A stretch of DNA of 64,000 nucleotides from Escherichia coli. GTDB taxonomy: Bacteria > Pseudomonadota > Gammaproteobacteria > Enterobacterales > Enterobacteriaceae. Within the stretch, counting starts at the first letter, position 1, and every line of letters starts with the position of its first letter. Shown here in pieces: positions 6,078 to 57,024 of this stretch. The notes under the pieces are model-generated. The model was not told the DNA's origin. It was given only the letters and a program-made list of their open reading frames with translations, and made no database searches. A program made the translations under genes and the position numbers. The stretch lies in assembly GCF_003334255.1 (NCBI RefSeq), contig NZ_QOWU01000010.1. One strand, written 5' to 3'.

Positions 6078-6080
6078 GGT

Positions 6081-7139: not shown

Positions 7140-9932
<2,793 letters not shown>

Positions 9933-9933
<1 letters not shown>

Positions 9934-10514
9934 TACAACTTCACCAAACCACTAAAGCCCATAAAGGCCAGAGACATAAGACCTGCGGTAATTAACGCAA
10001 TGGCATTACCGCGAAAAGGTGCCGGGACATCAGCCACAGCAAGGCGTTCGCGGATGGCGGCGAAGAGCACCATCACCAGCGAGAAACCGACAGCGGCGGA
10101 AAAACCGTACAGCGCCGACTGCAAGAAATTGTGCCCGAGATTGATATTCAGCAACGCCACGCCGAGCACTGCACAGTTGGTGGTGATAAGCGGCAAAAAA
10201 ATCCCCAGCAGACGGTAAAGCACCGGGCTGGTTTTGCGCACCACCATCTCGGTGAACTGCACGACCACAGCAATCACCAGAATAAATGCCAGGGTGCGCA
10301 GGTAAATCAGATTAAGTGGGATCAAAATCCACGTATCGATAAGCCAGGCGCAAATAGACGCCAGCGTCATCACAAACGTTGTTGCCAGCCCCATGCCCAT
10401 CGCGGTTTCCAGTTTTTTGGAAACCCCCATAAACGGACAGAGACCGAGAAACTTGACCAGTACAAAGTTATTGACCAGTACAGTTCCGACAAACAGTAAC
10501 AGGTAGTCAGTCAT
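9933..10514 (-). CDS. rsxA: Rnf/Rsx complex subunit A
   Basis: 193-aa polytopic membrane ORF; first gene of rsx operon. Confidence 0.9.
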
Positions 10515-11972: not shown

Positions 11973-13013
11973 ATGAGCGACAACATCCGTGTTGGGTTGA
12001 TTGGGTATGGTTATGCGAGCAAAACCTTCCATGCGCCCCTGATTGCGGGCACGCCCGGGCTGGAACTGGCGGTAATCTCCAGCAGTGATGAAACAAAAGT
12101 AAAAGCCGACTGGCCAACGGTTACGGTTGTCTCTGAGCCGAAGCATCTGTTTAACGATCCCAACATAGACCTGATTGTCATTCCTACACCCAACGATACC
12201 CATTTCCCGTTAGCCAAAGCGGCGCTTGAGGCGGGTAAACATGTGGTCGTTGATAAACCCTTTACCGTGACACTGTCACAAGCGCGAGAGCTGGATGCGC
12301 TGGCAAAAAGCCTGGGGCGTGTGCTGTCTGTATTCCATAACCGTCGCTGGGATAGCGATTTCTTGACGCTAAAAGGTTTACTCGCGGAAGGCGTGCTGGG
12401 TGAAGTTGCTTACTTTGAGTCTCATTTTGACCGCTTCCGTCCGCAGGTGCGCGATCGTTGGCGTGAACAGGGCGGCCCAGGCAGCGGTATCTGGTACGAT
12501 TTAGCACCACATCTTCTTGATCAGGCCATTACGCTTTTTGGTTTACCGGTCAGCATGACGGTAGATTTGGCACAGTTACGGCCCGGAGCGCAGTCGACCG
12601 ATTATTTCCACGCCATCTTGTCCTATCCACAGCGGCGAGTCATTTTACACGGTACCATGCTGGCAGCCGCTGAGTCAGCACGGTATATCGTGCATGGATC
12701 CCTAGGCAGTTATGTGAAATATGGCCTCGATCCACAGGAAGAACGTCTGAAAAATGGCGAGCGTCTACCGCAGGAAGACTGGGGCTACGATATGCGTGAT
12801 GGCGTACTTACCCGCGTGGAAGGTGAGGAACGTGTCGAAGAAACGCTGTTGACGGTGCCTGGGAATTATCCGGCTTACTATGCGGCTATTCGTGATGCGT
12901 TAAATGGCGATGGTGAAAATCCGGTTCCGGCAAGCCAGGCAATCCAGGTAATGGAGTTGATTGAGCTGGGCATCGAATCCGCCAAACATCGCGCGACTTT
13001 GTGCCTTGCATGA
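11973..13013 (+). CDS. ydgJ: Gfo/Idh/MocA-family oxidoreductase
   Basis: ATG at 11973 (MSDNIRVGLIGYGYASKTFHAPLI, Rossmann N-terminus) preceded by GAGG; synteny. Confidence 0.85.
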   Translation: MSDNIRVGLIGYGYASKTFHAPLIAGTPGLELAVISSSDETKVKADWPTVTVVSEPKHLFNDPNIDLIVIPTPNDTHFPLAKAALEAGKHVVVDKPFTVTLSQARELDALAKSLGRVLSVFHNRRWDSDFLTLKGLLAEGVLGEVAYFESHFDRFRPQVRDRWREQGGPGSGIWYDLAPHLLDQAITLFGLPVSMTVDLAQLRPGAQSTDYFHAILSYPQRRVILHGTMLAAAESARYIVHGSLGSYVKYGLDPQEERLKNGERLPQEDWGYDMRDGVLTRVEGEERVEETLLTVPGNYPAYYAAIRDALNGDGENPVPASQAIQVMELIELGIESAKHRATLCLA

Positions 13014-13046
13014 AAAATGGATGGTGCATTTGCACCATCCATTTTG

Positions 13047-24695: not shown

Positions 24696-24702
24696 AAAAT
24701 AA

Positions 24703-42240: not shown

Positions 42241-42367
42241 TTTTATCATTTAGTGTTTTTTGCTGTTTCATAATGTTTCAGGCTGTGCATTATGTTTTTG
42301 ATTATCAACAGATTTGTGATTTTCCTTGTTCCAGCTTGTTTCACGTTGTAGCCCTTTGTGCAACGAT

Positions 42368-42391
42368 CGGTGTAGTCACTGGTGTAGTCAC
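42368..42391. promoter_or_regulatory. tandem GGTGTAGTCAC repeat near left end (candidate integrase arm-type site)
   Basis: CGGTGTAGTCACTGGTGTAGTCAC; near-identical copy at 57001-57024 near the right end. Confidence 0.4.
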
Positions 42392-42415
42392 TTTTTCGTA
42401 AAGAGGGGGTAAAAC

Positions 42416-43645
42416 GTGAGCAGAGCAATGAACAAACTGAGCGATACCTTGCTAAGGAAACTTCATGGTAAGCCAGCGGAGAAAAACACGTTTTATAGTG
42501 ATGGCGGAAACCTGAGCGTGAAATATTTAACATCAGGGAAATTGACCTGGTATTTCACATACAGGGCCGGAACGGGAAGGGAGACACGACCCGAACGCAT
42601 TAAGCTGGGAAGTTATCCTGATCTGAGCCTGAAAGCAGCCAGGGAAAAAGCCGCACAGTGTCGCACATGGCTGGCTGAGGGGAAAAATCCACGTCATGAG
42701 ATGAATTACACCGTACAGGAAGCGTTAAAGCCCGTAACGGTTGGCGATGCGCTCACCTACTGGCTTGAGTATTACGTAAAGGAAAACCGCGTGGATTATA
42801 TCGCCCTGAAAAGGCGACTTAATAATCACGTAATACAGCAGATTGGTGCTATGCCGCTGGATAAATGCGAGCTACGGCACTGGCTGGCCTGTTTTGACCA
42901 GGTGGCAAAGCGAACGCCTGTTACTGCCGGATTCGTGCTACAGGCGTGCAAACAGGCGCTTAAGTTCTGCCGTAGGCGGCGCTATGCAATCAGCAACGTT
43001 CTGGACGATCTGAACGTGGCGGACGTTGGGAAAAAACCGGATATAAGCGAACGTGTCTTAAGTAACAAAGAACTTGGCGAATTATTGCAGGCACTGGACA
43101 AAAAAATATTTTCCCCTTACTACGTCGCGTTAATCCGCCTCCTGATTGTCTTCGGAGCCAGGACGGTAGAACTGAGGCTATCGGAGATCGGGGAGTGGGA
43201 TTTTACGGAAATGCTATGGACCGTTCCGAAGGAGCACAGCAAAACGAAGGTCGCAATATTCCGGCCCATACCGGAAGCGATCCTGCCGTTCGTCACGCAG
43301 CTGGTGGAGCAGAACAGGCACACGGGCTTATTGCTGGGGGAAGTGAAACAGGAGGCCAGCGTATCGCAGTATGGAAGATTAGCGCACAGGAGGCTTAATC
43401 ATCCTCACTGGTCACTGCATGACATCCGGCGCACCTTTACAACCATGCTGAACGATTTAGGCGTTGATCCGCATGTCGTGGAGCAGCTTACAGGTCATCA
43501 GATGCCAGGAATGCAGCGAGTTTATAATCATTCCCGTTATCTGGATGCTAAACGCAATGCGCTGGATATGTGGATGGAGCGGTTAGGGATACTGGCGGGA
43601 ACACATGAAAACGTAACCACGCTACCAGTAGCCAGAAGAAAATAA
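42416..43645 (+). CDS. int: tyrosine integrase, P4-type
   Basis: 409-aa ORF, GTG start after AGAGGGGG; N-terminal arm-binding domain, C-terminal catalytic region with HDIRRT and downstream Tyr (RVYNHSRY). Confidence 0.9.
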   Translation: MSRAMNKLSDTLLRKLHGKPAEKNTFYSDGGNLSVKYLTSGKLTWYFTYRAGTGRETRPERIKLGSYPDLSLKAAREKAAQCRTWLAEGKNPRHEMNYTVQEALKPVTVGDALTYWLEYYVKENRVDYIALKRRLNNHVIQQIGAMPLDKCELRHWLACFDQVAKRTPVTAGFVLQACKQALKFCRRRRYAISNVLDDLNVADVGKKPDISERVLSNKELGELLQALDKKIFSPYYVALIRLLIVFGARTVELRLSEIGEWDFTEMLWTVPKEHSKTKVAIFRPIPEAILPFVTQLVEQNRHTGLLLGEVKQEASVSQYGRLAHRRLNHPHWSLHDIRRTFTTMLNDLGVDPHVVEQLTGHQMPGMQRVYNHSRYLDAKRNALDMWMERLGILAGTHENVTTLPVARRK

Positions 43646-43832
43646 TTTTTTTCGTGTTTTTTCAGTATGCGCATACTGGATATGCGAACAGATACAACAT
43701 GCAACAATGAGCAACAATGCGGAACAACTACGAACAAGAGACGAAAAAGTGTACGGATTTATAAGTAGCTGATTTTTAATGTGTTACTGGTTTTTTATAC
43801 ACTAGCGAATCACTCTTTAAATAGCGAGAAAA

Positions 43833-43859
43833 AAGGCATGAAACAATATTTTATGCCTT
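43833..43859. terminator. stem-loop in int-alpA intergenic region (terminator-like, orientation ambiguous)
   Basis: AAGGCAT-gaaacaatatttt-ATGCCTT; T-run on the minus-strand side (TTTTTTCTCGC), weaker T-rich tract on plus side. Confidence 0.35.
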
Positions 43860-44019
43860 TGTATTAACATGAATTTAAATGATTTTATCCTGATTATTCC
43901 TGTTTCTGTAAACCATACGACCTCAACATTTGCCAACTCTGAATCATCCTGACACAATCAGACACATCCCAACGCAATAGAACACGAAATAACTCTTTAA
44001 GAAACGAAAGGGGGCAATA

Positions 44020-44208
44020 GTGTTAAGCACTGATCGGTTTATACGTGAAAAAGAATGCGAAAAGCTAACAGGCCTTAGCCGCTCATGCCGCTACCGCCTG
44101 GAAAAGGCCGGACAATTCCCATCACGTCGTAAACTTGGCGGTCGTTCCGTTGGCTGGTCTTTATCCGAGGTTCTGGCCTGGAAGGATAGCTGCAAGGCAG
44201 TTCATTAA
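44020..44208 (+). CDS. alpA: AlpA-family phage transcriptional regulator / excision activator
   Basis: 62-aa ORF, GTG start after AAGGGGG; MLSTDRFIREKECEKLTGLSRSCRYRLEKAGQFPSRRKLGGRSVGWSLSEVLAWK matches AlpA/Vis-type HTH proteins. Confidence 0.85.
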   Translation: MLSTDRFIREKECEKLTGLSRSCRYRLEKAGQFPSRRKLGGRSVGWSLSEVLAWKDSCKAVH

Positions 44209-44351
44209 TCACGCTGGCGGCACACAGCCGCCACACATCAATCATCTGAACACAGAGCTATAACCATGAAGATTGAATATACGCCAGAACGTGGGCGGGG
44301 ATTCGTTCGCCCTGGTGAGACTGGAAAACCACAAAATTGGGGTTTTTCAGG

Positions 44352-44388
44352 CATAAAAAAAGCGGCCCCGAAATGGAGCCGCCTTTCT
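44352..44388 (-). terminator. rho-independent terminator for minus-strand island transcript
   Basis: On minus strand: AAAGGCGGCTCC-atttc-GGGGCCGCTTT followed by T7. Confidence 0.45.
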
Positions 44389-44477
44389 GAACAGATAACA
44401 CGCTGCGCCGTTTGTGTGTGTGATCCCAAACATAAGCACGGGGATGATAGCCGCTATCAGGCTGGTGGGCAATGCAA

Positions 44478-44651
44478 TCAGTCTGGTTCAGTTCGTTGCC
44501 ATACCTGCAATGAGCGCTTTTCCCTGTACTCTTTAAGGAATTGCTCAAGGGCAAAAGCACATGGCGCGAATCTTTCTGATTCATGCTCTATCTTTCTGCG
44601 CCGTCTTTTCCGTGCCGGTGATAATGTTTTGGTCAATTCTTTATCGGTCAT
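44478..44651 (-). CDS. hypothetical small basic protein (57 aa)
   Basis: MTDKELTKTLSPARKRRRRKIEHESERF...; ATG preceded by AGGA; downstream of orf101 on same strand, before the minus-strand terminator. Confidence 0.3.
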   Translation of the reverse strand: MTDKELTKTLSPARKRRRRKIEHESERFAPCAFALEQFLKEYREKRSLQVWQRTEPD

Positions 44652-44708
44652 TGTGTTGTCCTGCATAGCAATGCGCCGTAATACCTCACACCACGGCGCT
44701 GATAGTGA

Positions 44709-45014
44709 TTATTCTGATTCTTTGGCCTTGCGGCGCTGTAGTTCTTCACGAGCGATGGCGATAAGTTGCCCGAGTTCTTCCGTAGCTTTAATACCAATTT
44801 TTTCCACTTGCGCCAATGCATCGAGAGAAGAAATCAGAGGATTTTCACTGCTTCCTTCTGCCTGGCGGCGGGCGATCTCCCCGCGCATGGCGGTTACTAT
44901 GAATCCGGCGTTGCTTTCGCCGTCCAGTTTTACGGATTCCATGCCATCAAAAGCATCATGTGGGATACGAATTGAAATCTGTTTTGATTTGTCGTTGATA
45001 GTGTTTTTTGCCAT
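44709..45014 (-). CDS. hypothetical protein (101 aa), candidate island regulator
   Basis: MAKNTINDKSKQISIRIPHDAFDG...; ATG preceded by AGGAGA; reads away from paired operator-like inverted repeats. Confidence 0.55.
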   Translation of the reverse strand: MAKNTINDKSKQISIRIPHDAFDGMESVKLDGESNAGFIVTAMRGEIARRQAEGSSENPLISSLDALAQVEKIGIKATEELGQLIAIAREELQRRKAKESE

Positions 45015-45036
45015 GTGCATTCTCCTAAACAAAAGA

Positions 45037-45112
45037 TGTGATTCAGTATACACAAAAAAGAATCACAAAAAACACTTGACCTGTGATTCAGTTGAATTTA
45101 ATTTAAATCACA
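45037..45112. promoter_or_regulatory. divergent promoter region with two operator-like inverted repeats
   Basis: TGTGATTC-N15-GAATCACA (45037-45067) and TGTGATTC-N16-AATCACA (45082-45112); TTGACC -35-like hexamer at 45076-45081. Confidence 0.55.
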
Positions 45113-45201
45113 CCTCAGTAAGAGGATGTAAACGACAACGCCCCGAACTGTTTGCGGCAGTAGCGGGGCGTCTAACCAAACCGTTAACAGGAGTAACGAT
45201 T

Positions 45202-45399
45202 ATGGCTGGAACACAGCATACCCCACGTCTGGCGCACACACAAACTGCCTTTGTGTGGCGTTTTCTGGCACTAAGTGCCGGAGAATCTCAAATCATCCAC
45301 GTAACCGCCTGGACGGAACGCGAAGCGCGTAGCCGTTGCCCGTCCGGTTGTGTTGCTGTATTCGCCGCCCGTATTCGTCAGGGGGTGTGCCATGCCTGA
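45202..45399 (+). CDS. small protein (65 aa), possibly Icd/Ash-like
   Basis: MAGTQHTPRLAHTQTAFVWRFLALSAGESQ...; ATG after AGGAG (45189-45193); first gene rightward of the operator region; family assignment from memory only. Confidence 0.45.
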   Translation: MAGTQHTPRLAHTQTAFVWRFLALSAGESQIIHVTAWTEREARSRCPSGCVAVFAARIRQGVCHA

Positions 45400-45712
45400 C
45401 ATGACCAATTACCAGTACCTGATTAATCCGCATTTTAACTGTGAGCATGATATTGCTAAAAAGGTTTATTCCGCTGCGGATGGGGCTACTGACAATATAT
45501 CAATGGCTGTTTCGTCAATTGGTAGCCTGATGTGGTATGCGTCAGAAAATAAGGAATATGACGAAAAGGCCATGCGCATTGATATGGGTAATATTGGTTT
45601 GTTACTGGCAATGCTTGGACATTTTGATATTTCGTTACGGTGCACCATTGAAAATGCCACAGATGCATTAAATGCTATAAAGAAAGCGAATACTGATTCA
45701 AATCGGGGATAA
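45392..45712 (+). CDS. hypothetical protein (106 aa)
   Basis: MPDMTNYQYLINPHFNCEHDIAKKVYSAADG...; start overlaps previous stop; no family recognised. Confidence 0.5.
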   Translation: MPDMTNYQYLINPHFNCEHDIAKKVYSAADGATDNISMAVSSIGSLMWYASENKEYDEKAMRIDMGNIGLLLAMLGHFDISLRCTIENATDALNAIKKANTDSNRG

Positions 45713-45718
45713 ATAATC

Positions 45719-46018
45719 ATGAGAACGTATTTATCTGGCTTTACTGCCAGCGGTTATGCACACCCCAAAATTATCCCCGGCGCTATTTATCTGGATAAGA
45801 ACGGTAACAGAGTAACGGTAAAAGAACTGATGTTTGACCGTGTGTATTTTATTCGTGATGGCTATTCATTTCATAGTTCGCTGAACGTGGAGATCTTTAT
45901 TAGCAGATTCCGGCGGGAAATCCCGCTTTCCAGAAATAACCATGTGTCATGTATGGATGTTGATAAAAAACTACAGGAACTGAAAAACATGATTGCCGCG
46001 TGGAGAGAGCAGAAATGA
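45719..46018 (+). CDS. hypothetical protein (99 aa)
   Basis: MRTYLSGFTASGYAHPKIIPGAIYLDKNGNRVTVKELMFDRVYFIRDGYSF...; stop overlaps primase start (ATGA). Confidence 0.5.
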   Translation: MRTYLSGFTASGYAHPKIIPGAIYLDKNGNRVTVKELMFDRVYFIRDGYSFHSSLNVEIFISRFRREIPLSRNNHVSCMDVDKKLQELKNMIAAWREQK

Positions 46019-47832
46019 AAAAAGCGCCAAATTTAAAACACCAGCCGCGTGACAAAATGACGGAAGTCATCATTTTTGCGGGTAGTGATGCGTGGGCACA
46101 TGCGAAGCAGTGGCAGGAACAGGACGGGCGACTGGCTGGCGATAACGTGCCACCTGTCTGGCTTGGAGAGCAACAACTTGCCGAACTGGACAACCTGCAA
46201 ATCGTACCGGACGGACGCTATCGCGTGCGTCTCTACCAGGCGGGGTTATTGCGTCCGGGGCTTGTTAATACCATCGGGCAGAAACTGGCAGCGGCAGGTG
46301 TCAGGGATGCTGATTATTACCCTGAAGGAATGCACAGCCAGAAACGGGAGAACTGGCGCGAATATCTGGAACGTGAGCGGGGAGAGCTGGCGGAAAAGAA
46401 AAAGGTAGTTGAACTGCCTGTAAAGAAAAAAGAGCGGGTAAAAGACGATAACGCTTCATCACTGGCGCTTAACCAGATGGGAGCAAGTCAACGCGGCGAA
46501 GTTCTCCTGGCACATTATGGCGGTGAACTGGCGATTCATGCTGACTCTGACACTGTTCACTATTACAACGGCGTTGTATGGGAGCCAGTACAGGATAAAG
46601 AATTACAGCGAGCTATGGCGCAGATTTTCATTGATGCGGAGATCAGCTATTCGCAGAACGCCATTAAATCGGCGGTCGATACCATGAAGTTAAGTTTGCC
46701 TGTAATGGGGAATACAGCCCGTAACCTGATTGGATTCAGTAACGGTGTTTTTGATACCCGGACAGGCGATTTTCGGGAGCATAACAAAAACGACTGGTTG
46801 TTAATTGCCAGTGAATTACCTTTCAGCCCACCAGCAGAGGGGGAAACGCTGGCAACACATGCGCCGAATTTCTGGAAGTGGTTACGCCGTTCGGTGGCTG
46901 AGAATGACCGCAAGGCGGATCGCGTACTGGCTGCATTATTCATGGTGCTGGCGAACCGGTACGACTGGCAGTTATTCATTGAGGTAACAGGTCCAGGGGG
47001 AAGTGGTAAAAGCGTGATGGCGGAGATTTGCACCATGCTGGCGGGTAAGGCCAACACGGTATCGGCAAGCATGAAGGCGCTGGAAGATGCCAGGGAACGC
47101 GCGTTAGTGGTTGGCTTTTCGCTGATTATCATGCCGGATATGACCCGTTACGCTGGTGATGGCGCAGGAATTAAGGCCATTACAGGCGGTGACAAGGTGG
47201 CAATCGACCCGAAGCATAAAGCCCCCTACTCAACACGCATTCAGGCGGTAGTGTTGGCGGTGAACAATAACGCCATGTCATTCAGTGACCGCAGCGGGGG
47301 GATTTCACGTCGTCGGGTGATATTCAATTTTTCGGAGGTTGTACCGGAAAACGAACGCGACCCCATGCTGGCAGAAAAAATAGAAGGAGAGCTGGCGGTT
47401 GTGATTCGCCACCTGCTTACTCGTTTTTCTGACCAGGACGCAGCTAAACGCCTGCTGTATGAGCAGCAGAAATCAGAAGAAGCTCTGGTGATAAAACGCG
47501 AGGGCGATTCGCTGGTGGACTTCTGCGGCTATCTCATGTCGTCGGTAATGTGTGATGGTCTGTTAGTGGGTAATGCCGAAATTATTCCGTTCAGTCCGCG
47601 CAGGTATCTTTATCACGCCTATCTGGCATATATGAGGGCACACGGATTCGGTAAACCTGTAACACTGACGCGCTTCGGTAAAGATATGCCGGGGGCAATG
47701 GCGGAATATGGCAGGGAGTATATGAAACGGAAAACGAAGCACGGTTTGCGTTCAAACGTGACACTGACGGAGGAATCAGAAGACTGGATGCCATCATGTG
47801 TATCGGTCACTAATGACGATAGCAAAAATTAA
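46015..47832 (+). CDS. P4 alpha-like replication protein (primase/NTPase, P-loop)
   Basis: 605-aa ORF with Walker A GPGGSGKS and Walker B-like region; followed immediately by TGTTCACC iteron cluster. Confidence 0.8.
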   Translation: MKKAPNLKHQPRDKMTEVIIFAGSDAWAHAKQWQEQDGRLAGDNVPPVWLGEQQLAELDNLQIVPDGRYRVRLYQAGLLRPGLVNTIGQKLAAAGVRDADYYPEGMHSQKRENWREYLERERGELAEKKKVVELPVKKKERVKDDNASSLALNQMGASQRGEVLLAHYGGELAIHADSDTVHYYNGVVWEPVQDKELQRAMAQIFIDAEISYSQNAIKSAVDTMKLSLPVMGNTARNLIGFSNGVFDTRTGDFREHNKNDWLLIASELPFSPPAEGETLATHAPNFWKWLRRSVAENDRKADRVLAALFMVLANRYDWQLFIEVTGPGGSGKSVMAEICTMLAGKANTVSASMKALEDARERALVVGFSLIIMPDMTRYAGDGAGIKAITGGDKVAIDPKHKAPYSTRIQAVVLAVNNNAMSFSDRSGGISRRRVIFNFSEVVPENERDPMLAEKIEGELAVVIRHLLTRFSDQDAAKRLLYEQQKSEEALVIKREGDSLVDFCGYLMSSVMCDGLLVGNAEIIPFSPRRYLYHAYLAYMRAHGFGKPVTLTRFGKDMPGAMAEYGREYMKRKTKHGLRSNVTLTEESEDWMPSCVSVTNDDSKN

Positions 47833-47846
47833 ACTTATGGAATAAC

Positions 47847-48076
47847 TGTTCACCACTGTTCACCCTGTCATAAATATCTTTTGTATCAGTATGTTATAGG
47901 GTGAACAGTTATTTATGAACTGTTCACCAAACTATTCACTGTTCACCTTTTTGATTGTTTATTGAGCTTCAAGGGTGAACAGTGGTGAATAGTTGGTGAA
48001 TAGTTTTTGTGAAACTGTTCACCCCTTAACATTATGAATTAAAAGATAAAATATCAAAAGGTGAACAGGTGAAGGG
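47847..48076. repeat. iteron cluster (TGTTCACC / GGTGAACA), candidate origin of replication
   Basis: At least 8 exact 8-mers in both orientations (47847, 47857, 47899, 47921, 47940, 47974, 48016, 48060) plus degenerate GGTGAATA copies in an AT-rich 230-bp non-coding stretch. Confidence 0.8.
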
Positions 48077-48119
48077 TTAAAACGCAAAAATTTTAATTTA
48101 CTGCTGTGAGATAAAGCCT

Positions 48120-48365
48120 ATGACAGCGAAGCACACAAAAAAATCACAATCGCACGCCCTTGATTTGACGGAACACTGGTTAAGGGTGTCGATAAAAATC
48201 ATCGACCGCAACGCCGGGGAAGGATATGCGAAAGCACATCCCGAACTGATTAGCTCATTCATGACAACGGCAGCTGCAAACTTTGCCACGCTGACAGAAC
48301 GGGAGATTGCCGAAGCGGAACAGGTGACAACCATCAACGTTAAAACCGGAGAGCAGACAGCATGA
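48120..48365 (+). CDS. hypothetical protein (81 aa)
   Basis: MTAKHTKKSQSHALDLTEHWLRVSIKIIDRNAG...; stop overlaps start of the SSB-like gene. Confidence 0.45.
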   Translation: MTAKHTKKSQSHALDLTEHWLRVSIKIIDRNAGEGYAKAHPELISSFMTTAAANFATLTEREIAEAEQVTTINVKTGEQTA

Positions 48366-48772
48366 CAGCACAGATAGCAGCTTACGGGCGGCTGGTGGAC
48401 GACCCGCAGGTAAAACAGACCAGTAAGGGCACACCGATGACGCTGGCGCGTATGGCGGTATCGTTGCCATGTAGTCAGGCGCAGGATGGGCAGGCGACGT
48501 TATGGCTATCGGTCATCGCATTTGGTAAGCAGGCCGACTTCCTGGCTAAACATCAAAAAGGCGACGTTGCCAGCGTATCCGGCACGATGCAGGTCAGCCA
48601 GTGGACCGGACAGAACGGGGAAACGCGGCAGGGTTATCAGGTTATTGCAGACAGCGTAATCAGTGCCCGTGCGGCACGTCCTGGCGGGAACAGACGCAAA
48701 ACCACAGGCACACAGGGTAATCAGCCACCAGCGGGAGGCGATGACCCTTACGGTGACGGTATTCCGTTCTGA
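48362..48772 (+). CDS. single-stranded DNA-binding protein-like (OB fold with acidic C-terminal tip)
   Basis: 136-aa ORF with Gly/Gln-rich linker and C-terminal DDPYGDGIPF resembling the SSB DDDIPF tail. Confidence 0.7.
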   Translation: MTAQIAAYGRLVDDPQVKQTSKGTPMTLARMAVSLPCSQAQDGQATLWLSVIAFGKQADFLAKHQKGDVASVSGTMQVSQWTGQNGETRQGYQVIADSVISARAARPGGNRRKTTGTQGNQPPAGGDDPYGDGIPF

Positions 48773-48782
48773 GGGGGTGGCG

Positions 48783-49055
48783 ATGGTACATGACCGCATA
48801 GCGGAAGAACTCGAGGCGAAAGGCTTTTACCGGAGGGCGGCGGCGCGATGGGGTGAAGTCATGCTGCTGGTGGAGACAGACAAGGAACGGCATCAGGTTA
48901 CGATGCGACGGCTGGAATGTTCCAGGAAGGCACAGAAGCCACCGGAGCCGCCGGATAACTTCGGAGACCTGAGAAAGGCAGTAGATCGCACTTATGCTGA
49001 AATGGGTATAGATGGTGTAAGCGATGAAATATGGCGTAATTACCCAGACAGCTAA
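48783..49055 (+). CDS. PerC-family transcriptional regulator-like protein
   Basis: 90-aa ORF MVHDRIAEELEAKGFYRRAAARWGEVMLLVETDKERHQVTMRRLEC...; the AExLExKGxxRRAAxRWxEVM pattern is typical of PerC/Pch proteins; ATG after GAGGGGG. Confidence 0.55.
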   Translation: MVHDRIAEELEAKGFYRRAAARWGEVMLLVETDKERHQVTMRRLECSRKAQKPPEPPDNFGDLRKAVDRTYAEMGIDGVSDEIWRNYPDS

Positions 49056-49060
49056 TCAAC

Positions 49061-49084
49061 AGCCGGAGAAATCCGGCTTTTTTT
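49061..49084 (+). terminator. rho-independent terminator
   Basis: AGCCGGAG-aa-ATCCGGCT hairpin followed by T7. Confidence 0.65.
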
Positions 49085-49179
49085 GCACCAGTTGAAACGG
49101 TATGGCGCATTACCGGGTTTTCGTCACGGTCAGGCATAGTTACTATCTGAAACAAACAGACACAACAGAGGAAAAAACA

Positions 49180-49404
49180 ATGCCGATGAAATTTGATGAG
49201 ATATTAAAACAGCGTGATAAATACCATGCTGACAACATGGAGACGATGAGCATCAATGATTACCGCGCATTCCTGGAGACGGGCGCACTGATTGAAAAGG
49301 ATCAGCATGGTTTTGTGAGATGTGCTCTGTCCGGTGAAATGCTGGCGGTAAATCCTGAACAGATAGATGCATTGATAGAATTTCTGAAAGGGATCAGGGA
49401 CTGA
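49180..49404 (+). CDS. hypothetical protein (74 aa)
   Basis: MPMKFDEILKQRDKYHADNMETMSINDYRAFLETG...; ATG after AGGAAAAAA; followed by a terminator. Confidence 0.45.
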   Translation: MPMKFDEILKQRDKYHADNMETMSINDYRAFLETGALIEKDQHGFVRCALSGEMLAVNPEQIDALIEFLKGIRD

Positions 49405-49414
49405 GCACGCATAC

Positions 49415-49436
49415 AGCCGGAGCAATCCGGCTTTTT
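49415..49436 (+). terminator. rho-independent terminator (near-duplicate of 49061-49084)
   Basis: AGCCGGAG-caa-TCCGGCT hairpin followed by T5. Confidence 0.65.
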
Positions 49437-49696
49437 GTCATTTTTTGTAAATTATTTGTTCGTGGTTGTTCCACGTTGTTCACTGACAGGATCGGCATAT
49501 TTTACCCGAACTGAATCATGAGTATTCTCGCCCGTGGTGCCAGGACGCTGGGGCCACTTTCCCGCCTGTTAATGTGCTCGCCAATATTCATTACCAGGCG
49601 GGAAAACGATCGGTGCGATTGCTGATTTCCTTATGAAAAACGGTTGAGTTTTTGCCGCGTCCTGGAGTTCCTTACTTAACCCCAGGACTTTTTTTT

Positions 49697-50854
49697 ATGC
49701 CGAGAATAATCGAATTACGCCAGCAGAAAACCGCCATTAAAAATCAGATGCGCGACATGCTGGAGAACGCGGAAAAAGAAAACCGCAGCCTTAACGATGC
49801 AGAGGGCGCAAAATTTGACGAATTACGCGCTAAAGCTGAATCCCTCGATAAAGACATTTCCCGCCTTGAAGCCATTGCAGACGAAGAGCGCAGCAAGCCA
49901 GGTAAAAGCAGCCAGACCACTGACCCGGCAGAACTCCGCAACTACATCCTGACAGGTGAAACCCGCGCATTAAGTACAGGCGTTCCCGCTGATGGTGGTT
50001 ATACCGTTATCCCCGAACTGAACACCGAAATCATGCGAATGCTGACGGATGAATCCACCATGCGCCGCATCTGTACCGTGAAGAAAATCAGCAGCAACGA
50101 GTTTAAGCAGCTTGTTTCCGCTGGCGGTGCGACCGTTAACCACGGTGAAGAGGGTAAGACACGCGAACAGACCAGCACCCCGCAGATTAACGAGGTGAGC
50201 ATTAAGCTGTATCCGGTCTATGCGTACCCGCGCACCACACAGGAAATCGTGGATTTTTCCGATGTGGACATCCTTTCATGGCTGACGGGTGAGATTGGCG
50301 ACACCTTCACGGAAACCGAAGAAAGCGATCTGGTTGTGGGCGACGGTGACAAAAAAGCAAAAGGTTTTTTATCCGTACCCCGTGCAGAGAAGAACGACAA
50401 AGAGCGTGATTTTGGTACGTTGCAGGTAATTAAACCTTCCGAATCTCTGGCGTGGACATCTGCGGACCCGCTGATCGACCTGAAATTTGCATTACGTAAA
50501 AAATACCGCAAAAACGCGGTCTGGGTGGTTAACTCCACGACGGCGGCAAAACTTCAGAAGGTGAAGAACGCGAACGGTGATTACATCTGGCGCGACCGTT
50601 TACAGGCGGGTGATCCTGATACGTTGCTGGGCCTTCCGGTCGAATATCTGGAGTTTATGCCTGATAACGTTATTGCCCTGGGTGACTTCAAACGCGGTTA
50701 CTACATTGTTGATCACGAAACAGGTGTTCGCACCAGACCGGACAACCTCACAGAGCCGGGCTTCATCAAAATTTTCACGCAGAAATATTTAGGCGGTGGC
50801 GTGGTGGATTCGAACGCGATCAAGATTCTGGAACTGCCACAGGACGACGATTAA
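49697..50854 (+). CDS. major capsid protein, HK97 fold, with N-terminal coiled-coil (delta/scaffold-like) region
   Basis: 385 aa from ATG 49697 (MPRIIELRQQKTAIKNQMRDMLENAEKENRSLNDAEGAKFDELRAK...); capsid-family core follows. Confidence 0.85.
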   Translation: MPRIIELRQQKTAIKNQMRDMLENAEKENRSLNDAEGAKFDELRAKAESLDKDISRLEAIADEERSKPGKSSQTTDPAELRNYILTGETRALSTGVPADGGYTVIPELNTEIMRMLTDESTMRRICTVKKISSNEFKQLVSAGGATVNHGEEGKTREQTSTPQINEVSIKLYPVYAYPRTTQEIVDFSDVDILSWLTGEIGDTFTETEESDLVVGDGDKKAKGFLSVPRAEKNDKERDFGTLQVIKPSESLAWTSADPLIDLKFALRKKYRKNAVWVVNSTTAAKLQKVKNANGDYIWRDRLQAGDPDTLLGLPVEYLEFMPDNVIALGDFKRGYYIVDHETGVRTRPDNLTEPGFIKIFTQKYLGGGVVDSNAIKILELPQDDD

Positions 50855-50864
50855 CAGCATACAG

Positions 50865-50893
50865 AAGGGGCTTAAAAGCCCCTTTAGTGTTTT
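50865..50893 (+). terminator. stem-loop after capsid gene (attenuator/terminator)
   Basis: AAGGGGCTT-aaa-AGCCCCTT followed by TAGTGTTTT. Confidence 0.5.
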
Positions 50894-51466
50894 ATGGGTG
50901 AAAAAATTATGAAGAGTATGGAAATCCGGTCATCGGAAATCACCACCAGCGCCAGCAACACGCTTACAGGCTACGTTGTTCGCTGGGATAAGCTTTCAGA
51001 GCTGCTATGGGGGGAGTTTTACGAAAAATTCCAGCGGGGAGCGTTTACTGAATGGCTTGCGGCGGGTAATGACGTTCGCGGCCTGTATGAGCATGACCAC
51101 AGCATGTTGCTGGGGCGTACCCGTTCCGGCACGCTGAAACTGGAAGAGGACGAAACAGGGTTACGCTTTGAACTGACCCCACCGGATACCAGTACAGGGC
51201 GCGACGTTATCGAACTGGTTAAGCGTGGGGACATCTCGGGGATGAGCTTTGGCTTTCGCTCCCGTAAGGATGTATGGGATACCACAACAGATCCATGCGT
51301 GCGCACCGTGCTGGTGGCGGAACTGTACGAAATTACCGTTACATCGGTACCGGCTTACCCCGATTCCGGCGTGGAGCTGGCCCGCCGTTCCCTGTATGAG
51401 CAGCACCCCGAAAAAATGCCGCGTGCGGATAATCGCCGCTGGTGGGTGGATTTAGCGGGGGTGTGA
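50894..51466 (+). CDS. prohead maturation protease, HK97 family
   Basis: 190-aa ORF (true start may be ATG 50909); GAFTEWLAAGNDVRGLYEHDHSMLLGRTRSGTLKLEEDETGLRFELTPPDTSTGRD...GDISGMSFGF matches HK97-type prohead protease. Confidence 0.8.
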   Translation: MGEKIMKSMEIRSSEITTSASNTLTGYVVRWDKLSELLWGEFYEKFQRGAFTEWLAAGNDVRGLYEHDHSMLLGRTRSGTLKLEEDETGLRFELTPPDTSTGRDVIELVKRGDISGMSFGFRSRKDVWDTTTDPCVRTVLVAELYEITVTSVPAYPDSGVELARRSLYEQHPEKMPRADNRRWWVDLAGV

Positions 51467-51467
51467 T

Positions 51468-52679
51468 ATGTGGCTTTTCAGAAGAAAAAAAGAGCAGCGC
51501 AGCATGACGCTTGATGAATTTATGGCGCTGGCTGGCACATCGAACACGGGGGCGGGTGAGTACGTATCATCGGGGACAGCGGAATCACTGCCCGCCGTCA
51601 TGAACGCCGTGACGGTCATCTCTGAGGCGGTGGCTACCATGCCGTGTTACCTGTACCTGGTACGCAATGAGAAGGGGAAGGAGGCCCGCGAGTGGCTTGA
51701 TTCTCATCCGGTCGATCACATCCTCAACGAGCGCCCGAACGCGTGGCAGACTCCCTACCAGTTTAAGCGAATGATGATCCGCCACTGCCTGTTAAACGGT
51801 AATGCTTATGCGGTGATTCAGTGGGGGCGTGATGGTTTTCCGGTGGCTTTACATCCTTACCCGCCGCAGTCGGTGAACGTGGAGCAGACAGGCGAACACA
51901 ACTGGCGCTACTGCATCACTGACGCCTACACCGGAAACACCCGCAACTATTTACCGTGGGAGGTTCTCCACCTTCGTTACTCCACGGATGACGGTTTTAT
52001 GGGGCGCTCACCTGTAACCATCTGCCGCGAATCGCTGGGGCTTGGGCTGGCCCAACAACGCCACGGCGCGAGCGTGATGCGTGATGGCATGATGGCGGCA
52101 GGGGTTATCACGTCAGGCGAATGGCTGGACGGCGTGAAGGGCAAACAGGCATTAGCCGCACTGGAACGCTACAAAGGGGCCAGAAACGCCGGAAAAACGC
52201 CCATCCTTGAAGGGGGTATGAGCTATCAGCAGCTGGGCATGAGTAATCAGGATGCTGAATGGCTGGCCTCCCGTCGCTTCACCATTGAAGACATCGCCCG
52301 AATGTTCAACGTCTCGCCGATTTTTCTGCAGGAATACAGCAACAGCACCTACAGCAATTTCAGCGAGGCAAGCCGCGCATTTCTCACCATGACAATGCGC
52401 CCGTGGCTGGCGAACTTTGAGCAGCAGATAAAAAACGCCCTGCTGGTGGCCTCGCCTGTACCTGGTATCCGGTATCAGGTGGAGTTTGACAGCGCGGACC
52501 TGTTACGGGCCACACCTGGCGAACGCTTTGCCACCTATGAACGCGGCATCAAATCCGGCGTTATGTGCCCGAACGAAGCCCGCGAACGTGAAGGGCTGTC
52601 CCCGCGTGATGGTGGTGATGAGTTCAGCCAGGCATGGAAACAGGAAGTAAAAATCAGCGAGGGAGAAAAACCGGAATGA
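51468..52679 (+). CDS. portal protein, HK97 family
   Basis: 403-aa ORF; N-terminal region ...MPCYLYLVRNEKGKEAREWLDSHPVDHILNERPNAWQTPYQFKRMMIRHCLLNGNAYAV typical of HK97-like portals. Confidence 0.8.
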   Translation: MWLFRRKKEQRSMTLDEFMALAGTSNTGAGEYVSSGTAESLPAVMNAVTVISEAVATMPCYLYLVRNEKGKEAREWLDSHPVDHILNERPNAWQTPYQFKRMMIRHCLLNGNAYAVIQWGRDGFPVALHPYPPQSVNVEQTGEHNWRYCITDAYTGNTRNYLPWEVLHLRYSTDDGFMGRSPVTICRESLGLGLAQQRHGASVMRDGMMAAGVITSGEWLDGVKGKQALAALERYKGARNAGKTPILEGGMSYQQLGMSNQDAEWLASRRFTIEDIARMFNVSPIFLQEYSNSTYSNFSEASRAFLTMTMRPWLANFEQQIKNALLVASPVPGIRYQVEFDSADLLRATPGERFATYERGIKSGVMCPNEAREREGLSPRDGGDEFSQAWKQEVKISEGEKPE

Positions 52680-53014
52680 ACATAGGGCGACTGCGTGACA
52701 GGGTAACGATTCAGACCCTGAAACAGACCAGGGATATAACCGGCGAAATACTCGAAACGTGGGAGGACGGTCACACACTCTGGGCAAGCGTGAACATGAT
52801 CAGCAGCAAGGAGGCCATTTCATCGGGTGCAGAGCTGGCGATTGGTACCGTAAGGATCTGGATACGGTACCGGAAGGACATCAATGCCACCAGCCGGATA
52901 AAGGTCAGTACGGGGCCGCTGGCGGGGCGTGTACTGAATATCATCGGGCAGCCGCTGCCGGATGCCGCCAGGACACGCCTTGAAATTCTTTGTCGTGAGG
53001 GCGCGGAAAAATGA
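52676..53014 (+). CDS. head-tail adaptor / head closure protein
   Basis: 112 aa from ATG 52676 overlapping portal stop (MNIGRLRDRVTIQTLKQTRD...). Confidence 0.65.
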   Translation: MNIGRLRDRVTIQTLKQTRDITGEILETWEDGHTLWASVNMISSKEAISSGAELAIGTVRIWIRYRKDINATSRIKVSTGPLAGRVLNIIGQPLPDAARTRLEILCREGAEK

Positions 53015-53307
53015 CAGAAGAACTTATCACCCTGGAAGAAGTGAAACTCCATTGCCGCATCGATGGCGACGAGGAAGACCAGTTAATCAGCGGATACATC
53101 GCCGCATCGCTTGAGGCGTGCCAGATACACATAGGCAGGCGCTTTGATGACGGGCTGGAGTTCACGCCAGCCATAAAGATTGGCTGCATGATGTTTATCG
53201 CTCACCTGTATGAAAATCGCCAGATTGTCGCGGATAACGCAAAAACACGCGTACCCATGACGATTGGTGCACTCTGGACGGCTTACCGTGATGTGGGGGT
53301 GTACTGA
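53011..53307 (+). CDS. gp6-like head-tail connector protein
   Basis: 98-aa ORF MTEELITLEEVKLHCRIDGDEEDQLISGYIAASLEACQIHIGRRF... Confidence 0.65.
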   Translation: MTEELITLEEVKLHCRIDGDEEDQLISGYIAASLEACQIHIGRRFDDGLEFTPAIKIGCMMFIAHLYENRQIVADNAKTRVPMTIGALWTAYRDVGVY

Positions 53308-53747
53308 TGCCGTGGCAACCATTAAGACGATGCACAGAACCAGGCTGTAACAGGCGCGTGAAGTCCGGCAAGTGTGAGGAGCACAGGCGGGCGGCATGGC
53401 GTGCAGAGGATGCCAGACGAGGACACCGCCGCGCGCGTGGGTACTCCAGACAGTGGGACAAATACCGCGCCATGTATCTGAGTAAAAACCCGTTATGCGT
53501 GCGATGCCTTGAGAAGGGGATATATACGCCCGCCGTGGTGGTGGATCACATTATCCCGATTAATGGCGGTGATGATGTTCTCTTCTGGCCCGAATGGAAC
53601 CATCAGCCATTGTGCCAGGCGTGCCATAACCAGAAAACGAAATGGCTTGATCCGGCAACAAAAAGCAAGCGTGCCGCAGGTGGATTTCGTGAAGAGGAAG
53701 AACGGGCCGCTAACCGCAATAACTGGATGTATGACGCTGATGAATGA
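53307..53747 (+). CDS. HNH endonuclease (packaging-associated)
   Basis: 146-aa ORF with Cys pairs (CTEPGCNRRVKSGKCEEH, CVRC) and HNH core VVDHIIPINGG...NHQPLCQACHNQKT. Confidence 0.85.
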   Translation: MPWQPLRRCTEPGCNRRVKSGKCEEHRRAAWRAEDARRGHRRARGYSRQWDKYRAMYLSKNPLCVRCLEKGIYTPAVVVDHIIPINGGDDVLFWPEWNHQPLCQACHNQKTKWLDPATKSKRAAGGFREEEERAANRNNWMYDADE

Positions 53748-53913
53748 GCGGGAACAAAACCGCCTTATCCGTGGACTTATAAGGCAGCGTGACGCATGGA
53801 AGACACAGGAAACAGGGCATAAAGATAAAGCGTCAGGACGCGCAGAACGCATCACAGCGAAGCGATTAACCGACCGTGACCGCGAGGTTATGGAATGTTT
53901 CCGCAATCGCTGA
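53740..53913 (+). CDS. possible small charged protein (57 aa), translationally coupled to HNH gene
   Basis: ATG overlaps HNH stop; MNEREQNRLIRGLIRQRDAWKTQETGHKDKASGRAERITAKRLTDRDREVMECFRNR; no RBS evidence. Confidence 0.25.
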   Translation: MNEREQNRLIRGLIRQRDAWKTQETGHKDKASGRAERITAKRLTDRDREVMECFRNR

Positions 53914-54035
53914 TGAGGCTGTATGACGGGGTGGGGGGCGTTTTCAGGACAAACCCGACCCCGCCGGGCACCGACCGCCTCCTCAAATTTTTATGCACGG
54001 GAATTTTTTGAAAAATAATCTGACGAAAAATAAGC
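53914..54035. other. candidate cos/packaging-initiation region between HNH and terS
   Basis: Non-coding stretch with G/C-rich blocks (ACGGGGTGGGGGGCG, CCCGACCCCGCCGGGCACCGACCGCC) directly upstream of terS; HNH-cos-TerS arrangement is typical of HK97-like cos packaging. Confidence 0.3.
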
Positions 54036-54392
54036 ATGGCAAGACCACCGAAAGCCCCCGCCTACCTGGATGACATCGCCGTGAAGCAGTGGCGGGAAAA
54101 ATCGCGGCAGCTTGCGGAACGGGGAGACCTGACCCCCGCCGACTGGAGCAATCTGGAACTGTATTGTGTCAACTACTCCATTTACCGGAAAGCCGTCGCA
54201 GACCTTGCGGCGCGCGGGTTCAGCATTGTTAACAGTCAGGGCGGCGAGAGCAGAAACCCCGCATTAAGCGCGAAATCAGACGCTGAAAGGGTGATGATAA
54301 AAATGGCCTCCTTGCTCGGTTTTGACCCGATAAGCCGCCGTAAAAACCCACCGGAAACAGAAGAAGAGGACGAGCTTGACCGCCTGGAATAA
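54036..54392 (+). CDS. terminase small subunit (P27-like)
   Basis: 118-aa ORF MARPPKAPAYLDDIAVKQWREKSRQLAERGDLTPADWSNLELYCVNYSIYRKA...; overlaps terL start. Confidence 0.7.
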   Translation: MARPPKAPAYLDDIAVKQWREKSRQLAERGDLTPADWSNLELYCVNYSIYRKAVADLAARGFSIVNSQGGESRNPALSAKSDAERVMIKMASLLGFDPISRRKNPPETEEEDELDRLE

Positions 54393-56037
54393 GTACGCAG
54401 AAGACGTAAAAACGGGCAAAATTCAGGCCTGTAAACGGTTAAAACAGGCCGTTAAACGGTACTTTTCGGACCTTAAAAGCCCCCTTTACACGTTCGATCG
54501 TGAGGTTGTGGATCGGTTTATTGCCTTTTCCAGGGTGTGCCCGCACGTAAAAGGGCCGATGCGTGGCAGACCCATTGAGCTGGAGCCGTGGCAGCAGTTC
54601 GCCTTTGCGTGCATCCTCGGCTTTAAGGTTAAGGCCACCGGACGGCGCAAATATACGAGCGCCTTTATCGAAGTGCCGCGCAAAAATGCTAAATCAACGA
54701 CCGCCGCGATTCTGGCTAACTGGTTTCTGATTATGGAGAACGGTCAGCAGGATATTTACACCGCAGCGGTGAGCCGTGACCAGGCGAGGATCGTATTTGA
54801 TGATGCGCGTCAGATGTGCATTTTATCCCGACCGTTACGCAGGCGGGTGAATATTCAGGCGCATAAGGTGATACACCCGAAAACCAACAGCCTGTTAAAG
54901 CCGCTGGCAGCAAAAGCGGCAACTATCGAGGGCACAAACCCCAGTCTTTCTATCGTGGACGAATACCACCTACACCCCGACAACGGCGTATATTCTGCGC
55001 TTGAACTGGGGATGGGGGCACGTCCCGAAGGGCTGTTATTTGCCATTACCACATCGGGAAGTAACGTCGTTTCAGCCTGTAAGCAGCATTATGATTATTG
55101 CTGCCAGATCCTGGACGGCGAAGAGGTTAACGAATCGCTTTTTGTGCTGATTTACGAACTGGACGACGAAAACGAGGTTGATGATCCGGAGATGTGGATA
55201 AAGGCGAACCCTAATATCGATGTTTCCGTGGATCGTGAAAAACTGGCCTCAACCATTCAGAAAGCGCGGGGTATTCCGTCGCAATGGGTGGAGATGATGA
55301 CAAAGCGATTTAATATCTGGTGTCAGGGGACTACCCCGTGGATGGGTAATGGTGCATGGGCTGAGTGTGCCGGAACGTTCACGGAGGAAGATTTACACGG
55401 TCAGGAGTGTTACGCGGGGCTGGACTTATCATCAACCAGCGATATTTCCAGCGTGTGCTATGCCTTTCCGGTCGGTAAAACCATTATGATGATTTCCCGT
55501 CATTATCTGCCGGAGTTCCAGCTACAGAACCCCGCCAATAAAAACCGCGCTGTCTATCGTCAGTGGGCTAAAGCAGGCTGGATACGCACAACGCCTGGCG
55601 ACTGCATTGATTACGACCGGATCAGAGATGACATCATGCAGGACGCGGAGAAATTTAATATCAGGCTGGTGGGCTTTGATACGTGGAACGCCACGCATCT
55701 CAGAACGCAATTACAGGGGGCAGGTTTTGAGGTGGAGCCGTTCCCGCAAACCTACCTCAGATTCAGTCCGGCGGCGAAATCGTTCGAAGTTTTTGTTAAC
55801 CGCAGGGTGATTGTGCATCGTGGCGATCCGGTGTTGTCCTGGTCGATGAGTAACGTCGTGATGCAGAGTGACGCGAACGCCAATATCAAGCCGAACAAGA
55901 AAAAATCACCGAACAAGATAGACCCGAGCGTGGCGGCGCTGATGGCGTTTGGTACATTCCAGGCAGAGCATGAGGATTTTGCTTTTGATATAAGCGACAG
56001 CCACCGCCAGAAACTGGAAGAATTTAGCGGGGTGTAA
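54376..56037 (+). CDS. terminase large subunit
   Basis: 553-aa ORF with ATPase P-loop region (VPRKNAKSTTAA) and C-terminal nuclease-type domain. Confidence 0.85.
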   Translation: MTAWNKYAEDVKTGKIQACKRLKQAVKRYFSDLKSPLYTFDREVVDRFIAFSRVCPHVKGPMRGRPIELEPWQQFAFACILGFKVKATGRRKYTSAFIEVPRKNAKSTTAAILANWFLIMENGQQDIYTAAVSRDQARIVFDDARQMCILSRPLRRRVNIQAHKVIHPKTNSLLKPLAAKAATIEGTNPSLSIVDEYHLHPDNGVYSALELGMGARPEGLLFAITTSGSNVVSACKQHYDYCCQILDGEEVNESLFVLIYELDDENEVDDPEMWIKANPNIDVSVDREKLASTIQKARGIPSQWVEMMTKRFNIWCQGTTPWMGNGAWAECAGTFTEEDLHGQECYAGLDLSSTSDISSVCYAFPVGKTIMMISRHYLPEFQLQNPANKNRAVYRQWAKAGWIRTTPGDCIDYDRIRDDIMQDAEKFNIRLVGFDTWNATHLRTQLQGAGFEVEPFPQTYLRFSPAAKSFEVFVNRRVIVHRGDPVLSWSMSNVVMQSDANANIKPNKKKSPNKIDPSVAALMAFGTFQAEHEDFAFDISDSHRQKLEEFSGV

Positions 56038-56050
56038 TGAGGTCAGCAGC

Positions 56051-56332
56051 ATGACAGAAGCCGAAATAACGGGATTAATCCGCCGCGTTGCCGGAATCAG
56101 CCAGCAGGCTGACGAACAGGCCACGCAGCCGGACAGCGTGACAGCCGAAAACTATGCGCGTGTTGTTGCTGAGGTGATGCGCCGTGATGGTATAGAACTT
56201 AATGGCGTGGATATGCGCAACATACGAACCAGAGTTCTTGAGTTGCTGGCCTACCGTCGCCGCGTGGAGATGTATCGGGAGAAGGAGAAAATAACGTACC
56301 ACTGGAAGAAGCCGGAGCGGTTGCGGCGGTAA
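56051..56332 (+). CDS. hypothetical protein (93 aa)
   Basis: MTEAEITGLIRRVAGISQQADEQATQPDSVTAENYARVVAEVMRRDGIEL...; ATG after GAGGT, 14 bp downstream of terL stop. Confidence 0.5.
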   Translation: MTEAEITGLIRRVAGISQQADEQATQPDSVTAENYARVVAEVMRRDGIELNGVDMRNIRTRVLELLAYRRRVEMYREKEKITYHWKKPERLRR

Positions 56333-56419
56333 CTGGTTGATATTCCCGACGGACCAAAAATGGGTGGCTACATCCCTCGCTTCTGAGGACTGTTAACAAG
56401 CTGCCTGAAAGACAGTCAC

Positions 56420-56890
56420 AAACTACGAAATTTTCGCAGTTTAATTAATGATCAGCTTAATCGCTAACCCGCTGATATTTTCGGAAACCTCAATTTGAGG
56501 AAGTCGGCGCGGTAACTCGCTGAACTTTAAGCAAAGTGCAAAATTGCGCTTGCTGAATAATCATTATGATTACGCAGATGATTAAGGAATGACCGAAGGC
56601 GGAAATTCGCCTGTGGTTAATGGGGGAGTTGCAGATCTGCAACTCGACCATGAAACTACGGAAACTACCCGTAGTTTGGGTAGTAAGAGTAACACCCAGA
56701 TTTTGGGTCTTACTCGTGATACCCAAATTTGGGGTATCAGTGGCAACCATAACGACTTTCGTTACGGTTGATGCTTTTACCCCATTGGGGGAAAGGTATT
56801 ACGATAATCATAACACCTACCGAACAGGTAAAGCCCACCAGCCTGATTAACGTTTAACCGGAAAAAAATTCCGGTAGGTGGGGATCCCCA
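56420..56890. other. palindrome-dense non-coding region at island right end
   Basis: Ten dyad-symmetric elements including perfect 20-bp palindrome GAGTTGCAGATCTGCAACTC (56626-56645) and three TACCC..GGGTA-type dyads about 25 bp apart; overlapping small ORFs lack RBS. Confidence 0.6.
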
Positions 56891-57000
56891 TATCGACATT
56901 AACGCCCCTCATGAATTGGTGCGCTTCCCCCTGGAAAGATGATCCGCCTGTATATTTCTTGTGTCTATTTGTTCCACGTTGTTTCATACAGTGCACCGAA

Positions 57001-57024
57001 CGGTGTAGTCACTGGTGTAGTCAT
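57001..57024. promoter_or_regulatory. tandem GGTGTAGTCA repeat near right end (candidate integrase arm-type site)
   Basis: CGGTGTAGTCACTGGTGTAGTCAT, counterpart of 42368-42391. Confidence 0.4.

Follow-up and report, generated by a model that had tools for sequence, protein, structure and literature searches.

A 29-bp sequence in the spacer between int and alpA of a phage satellite resident in Escherichia coli closely resembles a sequence in the chromosomal nth-dtpA intergenic region, and the resemblance is best described as an isolated similarity of about 50 bp between two loci, situated in what appears to be a fast-evolving, lineage-specific part of both regions. The two loci lie in the window, by which we mean the whole 64,000-nucleotide stretch of contig NZ_QOWU01000010.1 analyzed here, with positions counted from its first base. 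We tentatively attribute the similarity to a single ancient copying event, by which the stem lineage of E. coli acquired part of a satellite spacer upstream of dtpA, and consider the chances of this explanation to be close to even. Nothing suggests a function common to both copies, under any reading of their origin.

Extent of the similarity and its chance expectation

The satellite copy, AATTTAAATGATTTTATCCTGATTATTCC (43872-43900, + strand), and the chromosomal copy, AATTTAAATGATTTTAACCTGATTCTTGC (3883-3911, + strand), are identical at 26 of 29 positions on the same strand, exactly as the original prediction had claimed from the sequence alone, and the ungapped match grows by two bases leftward to 28/31 (starting at 3881 and 43870). 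The loci had also been labeled correctly, one as the nth-dtpA intergenic region and the other as the int-alpA spacer of an island, which we find inserted in tqsA. A search for ungapped homology in the flanks of both copies found none; in a gapped alignment a collinear match of 16/20 lies to the left, past an 8-nucleotide indel (3863-3882 versus 43844-43863), and the similarity overall is 41/47 (3863-3909 versus 43844-43898). On the satellite side the whole segment (43844-43898, + strand) consists of CAATATTTTATGCCTTTGTA, TTAACATG and the core, and takes in the 3' arm of a hairpin. Further to the left, a collinear match of 9/10 falls in a vertically conserved block of the dtpA upstream region. 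Both copies contain TGATT-N6-TGATT, a direct repeat with helical phasing such as response regulators or excisionase-like proteins bind, and a mini-ORF, MIL(S/T)*, is common to both. A 27-aa satellite ORF starting at 43869 was dropped from consideration, as it has an early stop in distant alleles.

The match had been judged too good for chance even in A+T-rich DNA, a claim that stands for one window and fails once many are scanned. Pairs matching at 26 or more of 29 positions are expected 0.013-0.027 times per window from local-composition shuffles in both orientations, and about 0.06 times for direct pairs, or about 0.13 times for both orientations, when the histogram from real sequence is extrapolated (the direct-pair counts in the window at 19 to 24 matches are 4728, 1038, 190, 41, 7, and 1). 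The core alone is unusual for one window, yet it is expected when many windows are scanned. It is the sole unexplained pair with at least 24/29 matches within the 64 kb, the others being accounted for by rsxC tandem repeats, the att repeats of the island, and terminator-like hairpins. Among these, perfect 29-mers between 7213 and 7650 recur at spacings of 96, 192, 288, and 384 bp and form tandem repeats of about 96 bp, which we take to lie inside rsxC; similar terminator-like hairpins pair at 24701/24882 (27/29) and at 49056/49410 (24/29). The window also has near-perfect palindromes at 13013-13046 and 56617-56654, the latter just inside the right end of the island.

The collinear flank, an extension found post hoc, is of a strength rarely seen. 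A 16/20 flank match has a p value of 2-5e-4 in composition-matched shuffles, and a comparable one accompanies 7 of 3549 real chance cores and one of the 135 that are AT-rich (p ~0.002-0.007). The gapped local score is 28.5, far beyond the best value of about 21 reached in 6,000-10,000 unrelated AT-rich pairs, and extrapolates to a P of 5e-8 to 6e-7 per AT-rich window pair and roughly 1e-4 to 2e-3 per 64-kb window; the joint expectation of core and flank is roughly 4e-5 to 2e-3 per window over the shuffles and real-sequence nulls. Both regions are about 70% A+T, and nhmmer returns E = 0.096 for a single query, with a composition-bias correction of 10.5 bits. BLAST with a 49-nucleotide motif query finds equally good matches of the 25/27 type in phage and plasmid sequences that are unrelated, among them the RNase H gene of a Serratia phage, a plasmid from Nostoc, and a helicase from Acinetobacter, and four unrelated viral contigs in IMG/VR, all AT-rich, share a 20-mer of the motif by chance. 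The statistics are borderline: they suggest that the two copies are related and do not prove it.

A lineage-specific patch upstream of dtpA

The nth-dtpA intergenic region (3513-4122, 610 bp) lies between nth (4123-4758) and dtpA (2010-3512), both on the - strand, and the window from 3000 to 5000 is identical to the rsxE-nth-dtpA region of K-12. The chromosomal copy, which corresponds to about 1,712,375-1,712,403 in MG1655, precedes the start codon of dtpA by 371-399 bp and lies in a 47-bp spacer patch (3863-3909 on the + strand) that is specific to E. coli and within about 2 bp of whose borders the ends of the similarity fall. This patch is fixed in the species, being present at 95% identity or more in 5424 of 5426 genomes. 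In the nth-dtpA region of 80 other Enterobacteriaceae species, four of them non-coli Escherichia, the motif is absent from every locus, the best match being 19/29. The patch is 16/47 (~34%) identical to the same-length patch of one sister Escherichia genome (L016), and its segments score 15-18/43 against all other taxa and 15-17/43 against the four sister Escherichia, with flanks that are ~92-100% identical between E. coli and these sisters. An alternative patch of the same length, whose identity to that of E. coli is no better than random, occupies the position in the four sister genomes (E. albertii, E. whittamii, and two more Escherichia), and is absent from the 5426 RefSeq E. coli genomes. 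Because the alternative patches resemble one another and, weakly, those of Salmonella and Citrobacter, it is the E. coli patch that looks derived; only its central GTTAAA(A/T)T box is common to other genera.

The motif columns have an information content near zero and form the least conserved stretch of the upstream region. Common E. coli variants turn CCTGATT into CCTAGTT or CCTAATT, and the motif is therefore not visibly constrained in E. coli, where polymorphisms are as frequent inside it as outside. The polarity of these polymorphisms is uninformative, with three variant types lowering the similarity to the satellite and one raising it. As it stands, the chromosomal copy would be spacer DNA with an older, semi-conserved -10-like box, GTTAAAAT, beside a CRP site. 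That site, ttCGTGAtcaagaTCACGatg (3933-3954, - strand), is 22 bp from the motif. At least 51 of the 81 sequences formed by the window and the 80 species' loci retain it, at a constant distance (-436 to -440) from the start of dtpA, and it has been footprinted in vitro, at MG1655 position 1,712,342, with a Kd of 2.1 nM (PMC12871828). An inverted repeat, GCAATGTttttACATTGC (3910-3927), abuts the patch and is retained within the genus Escherichia, where E. albertii differs by one base (ATTAC). Closer to the gene, blocks near-invariant across the Enterobacteriaceae (3588-3722, - strand) contain a putative proximal dtpA promoter (TTACCT, 17 nt, TATAAC) with OmpR-like boxes predicted upstream, and dtpA (tppB/ydgR) is under OmpR control according to the literature. 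The chromosomal copy is inside this OmpR/CRP control region but in a variable, E. coli-specific spacer, outside the conserved blocks.

Several side observations concern the same region. Between the CRP site and the proximal blocks there are hypervariable spacers of conserved length. At several other patches of the nth-dtpA region E. coli has retained the state found in Salmonella, Citrobacter, and Enterobacter (for example TAAATAGCAGAAC), and E. albertii, E. whittamii, and two other Escherichia (L013-L016) have a common, different state; the history of the region within the genus is accordingly mosaic. A CRP-dependent promoter around the chromosomal copy would be speculative, since none of the spacings corresponds to class I or class II geometry. 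We rejected an internal duplication of the conserved block CAGGTTAATTG (3982-3993), which shares only an 8-mer with the motif and matches at 16/29 overall.

A variable segment of the satellite int-alpA spacer

The island in tqsA (42358-57024, + strand) is 14.7 kb long and is bounded by 34-bp direct repeats (42358-42391 and 56991-57024). It has PHROGs matches to integrase, primase, major head, protease, portal, HNH, TerS, and TerL, and none to tail genes, and it encodes AlpA besides the integrase and primase. It thus combines the int, alpA, and primase of PICIs with a head and packaging module, and judged by gene content, a length within the usual range of about 10-15 kb, and att repeats it is a capsid-forming PICI-type satellite. 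The spacer that carries the motif (43646-44019) lies between the tyrosine integrase gene int (42416-43645, + strand) and alpA (44020-44208, + strand), whose 62-aa HTH product activates the satellite cycle. Where int ends, an A-run and GC-containing hairpin (43829-43860), conserved in 12/12 aligned satellite alleles, probably terminates transcription in both directions, the better U-run being on the - strand, and the satellite copy begins 12 bp downstream of it. A putative alpA promoter (43930-43958, + strand) combines TTGCCA and CACAAT at a 17-nt spacing, with TG before the second hexamer; all 12 aligned alleles have TTTGCCA, and some depart from CACAAT (the O157-type reads AACAAT). Relative to the start that this promoter would imply, the satellite copy lies about 65-95 bp upstream. 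In its present context it is upstream DNA of the putative alpA promoter, beside the int terminator.

This is the same place, between int and alpA, as the PalpA region of the Gram-negative PICIs EcCICFT073 and EcCIMP1. In such related elements PalpA lies in the int-alpA spacer, is autoactivated by AlpA, and is induced by helper phages via an unidentified factor (PMC6092414, PMC11773190). Those papers map no operator, and the motif described here is one allele of a variable segment next to a promoter that is itself putative.

The extent of this variation is evident from the 12 E. coli alleles that were aligned and from a subsequent comparison of 80 spacers, representing 42 distinct alleles. In its left half (AATT[T/A]AAA..TTTT) the motif is only loosely kept, and the right half, CCTGATTATTCC, is allele-specific, with unrelated sequence in its place in most satellite alleles; the commonest allele reads TTCTTACTGTTTC there, and the type seen in the window is found in about 150 of the roughly 880 genomes that match a 166-nucleotide query from upstream of alpA. 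Two aligned O157-type elements, from the other main allele class, differ in the right half of the motif and encode an AlpA ~98% identical to that of the window, and we found no co-variation of the motif with AlpA across variants at this level of identity. A family-invariant TGAAT lies within the 8 nucleotides that are missing from the dtpA copy. The original prediction had proposed conservation in related strains as a gauge of the motif, and the answer is divided: the motif is fixed within E. coli strains but absent from the sister species and variable across satellite alleles. A weak sigma-70 promoter, TTAACA-16-TATCCT, overlaps the satellite copy at no more than chance frequency, with none at the dtpA copy, and in a scan for DNA and RNA structure the terminator hairpin of the satellite is alone in being conspicuous (the dtpA copy has fold z-scores of -1.5 and -0.8).

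The int-alpA spacer is itself mosaic. A segment of about 110 bp (43880-43990) immediately before the putative promoter is only ~75% identical between satellites, and the surroundings are near-identical, including the end of int, the left part of the spacer, and alpA (98% for the protein). To the right the near-identity persists for about 690 bp from the alpA start, through alpA into the beginning of the following ORF, with divergence beyond. The choice of helper phage that induces alpA could be determined within the mosaic segment. More speculatively, the better U-run on the - strand means that the hairpin at 43829-43860 would terminate a short leftward transcript, and a possible leftward promoter (TTTACA, 19 nt, TAAAAT; 43876-43913), whose geometry is kept in other alleles, overlaps the motif. 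The 377-aa ORF that follows alpA (44266-45399) matches phage transcriptional-repressor families over its last 65 residues only, and in the RefSeq annotation of related strains its region is given as fragmented Icd-like pseudogenes together with an antisense YlcI/YnfO gene.

Origin of the resemblance

A search for further copies, in this genome and in related ones, yields nothing beyond the dtpA locus and satellite spacers: among 5426 E. coli genomes there is no third context, and no genome has the motif in more than three places. All 22 of the 22 motif matches in IMG/VR are satellite spacers, the phage and plasmid collections hold chance-level partial matches and a few satellite or dtpA loci, with no third context, and an Rfam search of the whole window finds no match. 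Nor is there a closer donor allele, or one lacking the 8-nucleotide indel, among the 42 satellite alleles, or a closer donor in the phage collection or IMG/VR, where four matches are to unrelated AT-rich viruses; intermediate patch alleles were sought in metagenomes and none was found, the one match being E. albertii-like. The position of one copy inside a mobile island and near an integrase gene might have indicated a small dispersed mobile or repeated element of the REP, ERIC, or MITE kind, or a recombination site of the integrase, and the original prediction had included a small mobile motif among its suggestions. This reading is effectively refuted. The motif occurs always at the dtpA locus or in a satellite spacer, there is no significant structure at the dtpA copy, and the real att repeats, at 42358 and 56991, are 1.5 kb and 13 kb away from a motif that is internal to the island and downstream of int. 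REP/BIME and ERIC/IRU sequences and att duplications are likewise short non-coding sequences present more than once per genome; unlike them the motif has two contexts only, is not palindromic, belongs to no family, and is not at an island boundary.

A shared protein-binding site, through which a host regulator (Fis, IHF, H-NS, Lrp, or another) or AlpA or a helper factor would co-regulate alpA and dtpA, appears improbable to us. Both copies are in promoter-upstream DNA, the satellite copy at about -95 to -65 from the putative PalpA start and the chromosomal copy 22 bp from a strong CRP site, both have TGATT-N6-TGATT, and PalpA of related elements is autoactivated by AlpA and helper-induced (PMC6092414, PMC11773190). 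Against these points, the dtpA motif is not conserved outside E. coli though the adjacent CRP site is, common E. coli variants change CCTGATT, and the right half, including the second TGATT, is not retained in satellites with ~98% identical AlpA; the satellite-invariant TGAAT is absent from the dtpA copy, and there are no further genomic copies, unlike what a regulon would have. For the host global regulator originally suggested, the outcome is unfavorable on the same grounds, with at most 19/29 matches at the dtpA locus in 80 species, a right half replaced in most satellite alleles, and TGAAT missing. Against the consensus sequences of IHF, Fis, Fur, ArgR, Lrp, OmpR, and TyrR we recognized nothing convincing in either copy. 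A combined version, in which the dtpA patch was copied from the alpA control region of a satellite and is still a shared binding site, would have AlpA, the helper inducer, or a host factor exploited by the satellite couple satellite induction to expression of the peptide permease, and we regard it as very unlikely.

That unrelated A+T-rich spacers should share 26/29 by coincidence, with the flank similarity due to the same luck, is a distinctly possible explanation, though one that we are inclined to doubt. With 0.02-0.13 such cores expected per 64-kb window, several would be met in a genome-wide scan; equal matches of the 25/27 type are found by BLAST in unrelated DNA, the 20-mer is in four viral contigs, and the nhmmer E value is 0.096 after bias correction. 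The additional 9/10 collinear match in the vertically conserved block must be chance, neither copy is conserved in its own lineage, E. coli polymorphisms are not depleted inside the motif, and the supposed replacement is length-neutral, retains the GTTAAA box, and has no known mechanism. What coincidence accommodates poorly is that a 16/20 collinear flank is found beside only 0.2-0.7% of chance cores, that the gapped score is far above the maximum of the unrelated AT-rich pairs, and that the similarity falls on the only large lineage-specific patch of the intergenic region.

These last observations are the ones that incline us toward the single copying event. As we envisage it, about 55 bp of the int-alpA spacer of a resident PICI-type satellite would have served as an ectopic template or filler, through illegitimate recombination, template switching, or end-joining repair, and the copied DNA would have taken the place of 47 bp of spacer that separated the CRP site from the conserved blocks nearer to dtpA, with a later loss of 8 bp restoring the spacing. 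The hairpin and TGAAT are conserved across divergent satellite alleles, from which we infer that the sequence is native to satellites, and this favors transfer from satellite to chromosome. The suggestion that the motif might be recombinogenic survives in this restricted form: one-off copying is a serious possibility, given that the 41/47 similarity coincides with the replaced, E. coli-specific patch, and it is unproven. Several features count against it. The replacement is exactly length-neutral and the GTTAAA box is shared with other genera, which in-place divergence would fit equally well; the 9/10 match at the left, being in a vertically conserved block, must be a coincidence or else imply the opposite direction; and there is no closer donor allele among the 42 satellite alleles, the two regions have the same ~70% A+T content, and the nhmmer E value is only 0.096. 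We know of no established mechanism for a micro-transfer of this kind from a satellite. The nearest parallel is horizontal regulatory transfer, in which non-coding promoter DNA has reportedly been replaced in E. coli, and which likewise involves non-homologous replacement of intergenic sequence between conserved flanks, fixed in one lineage. Its cases swap whole intergenic regions by recombination in the flanking genes, with an allelic region as donor, whereas here only 47 bp would have been exchanged and the putative donor is a satellite spacer.

If the resemblance is a coincidence its lesson is methodological, in that A+T-rich spacer DNA should yield a 26/29 match about once in every 10-50 windows, and such a match is not on its own to be taken for a motif. 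Either way, no regulator or regulon is added to the control of dtpA or of PICIs. If it is instead the scar of a copying event, it would represent a modest and datable instance of a host promoter region patched with mobile-element DNA, an unusually fine-grained replacement of regulatory DNA, and would indicate that satellites can donate non-coding sequence.
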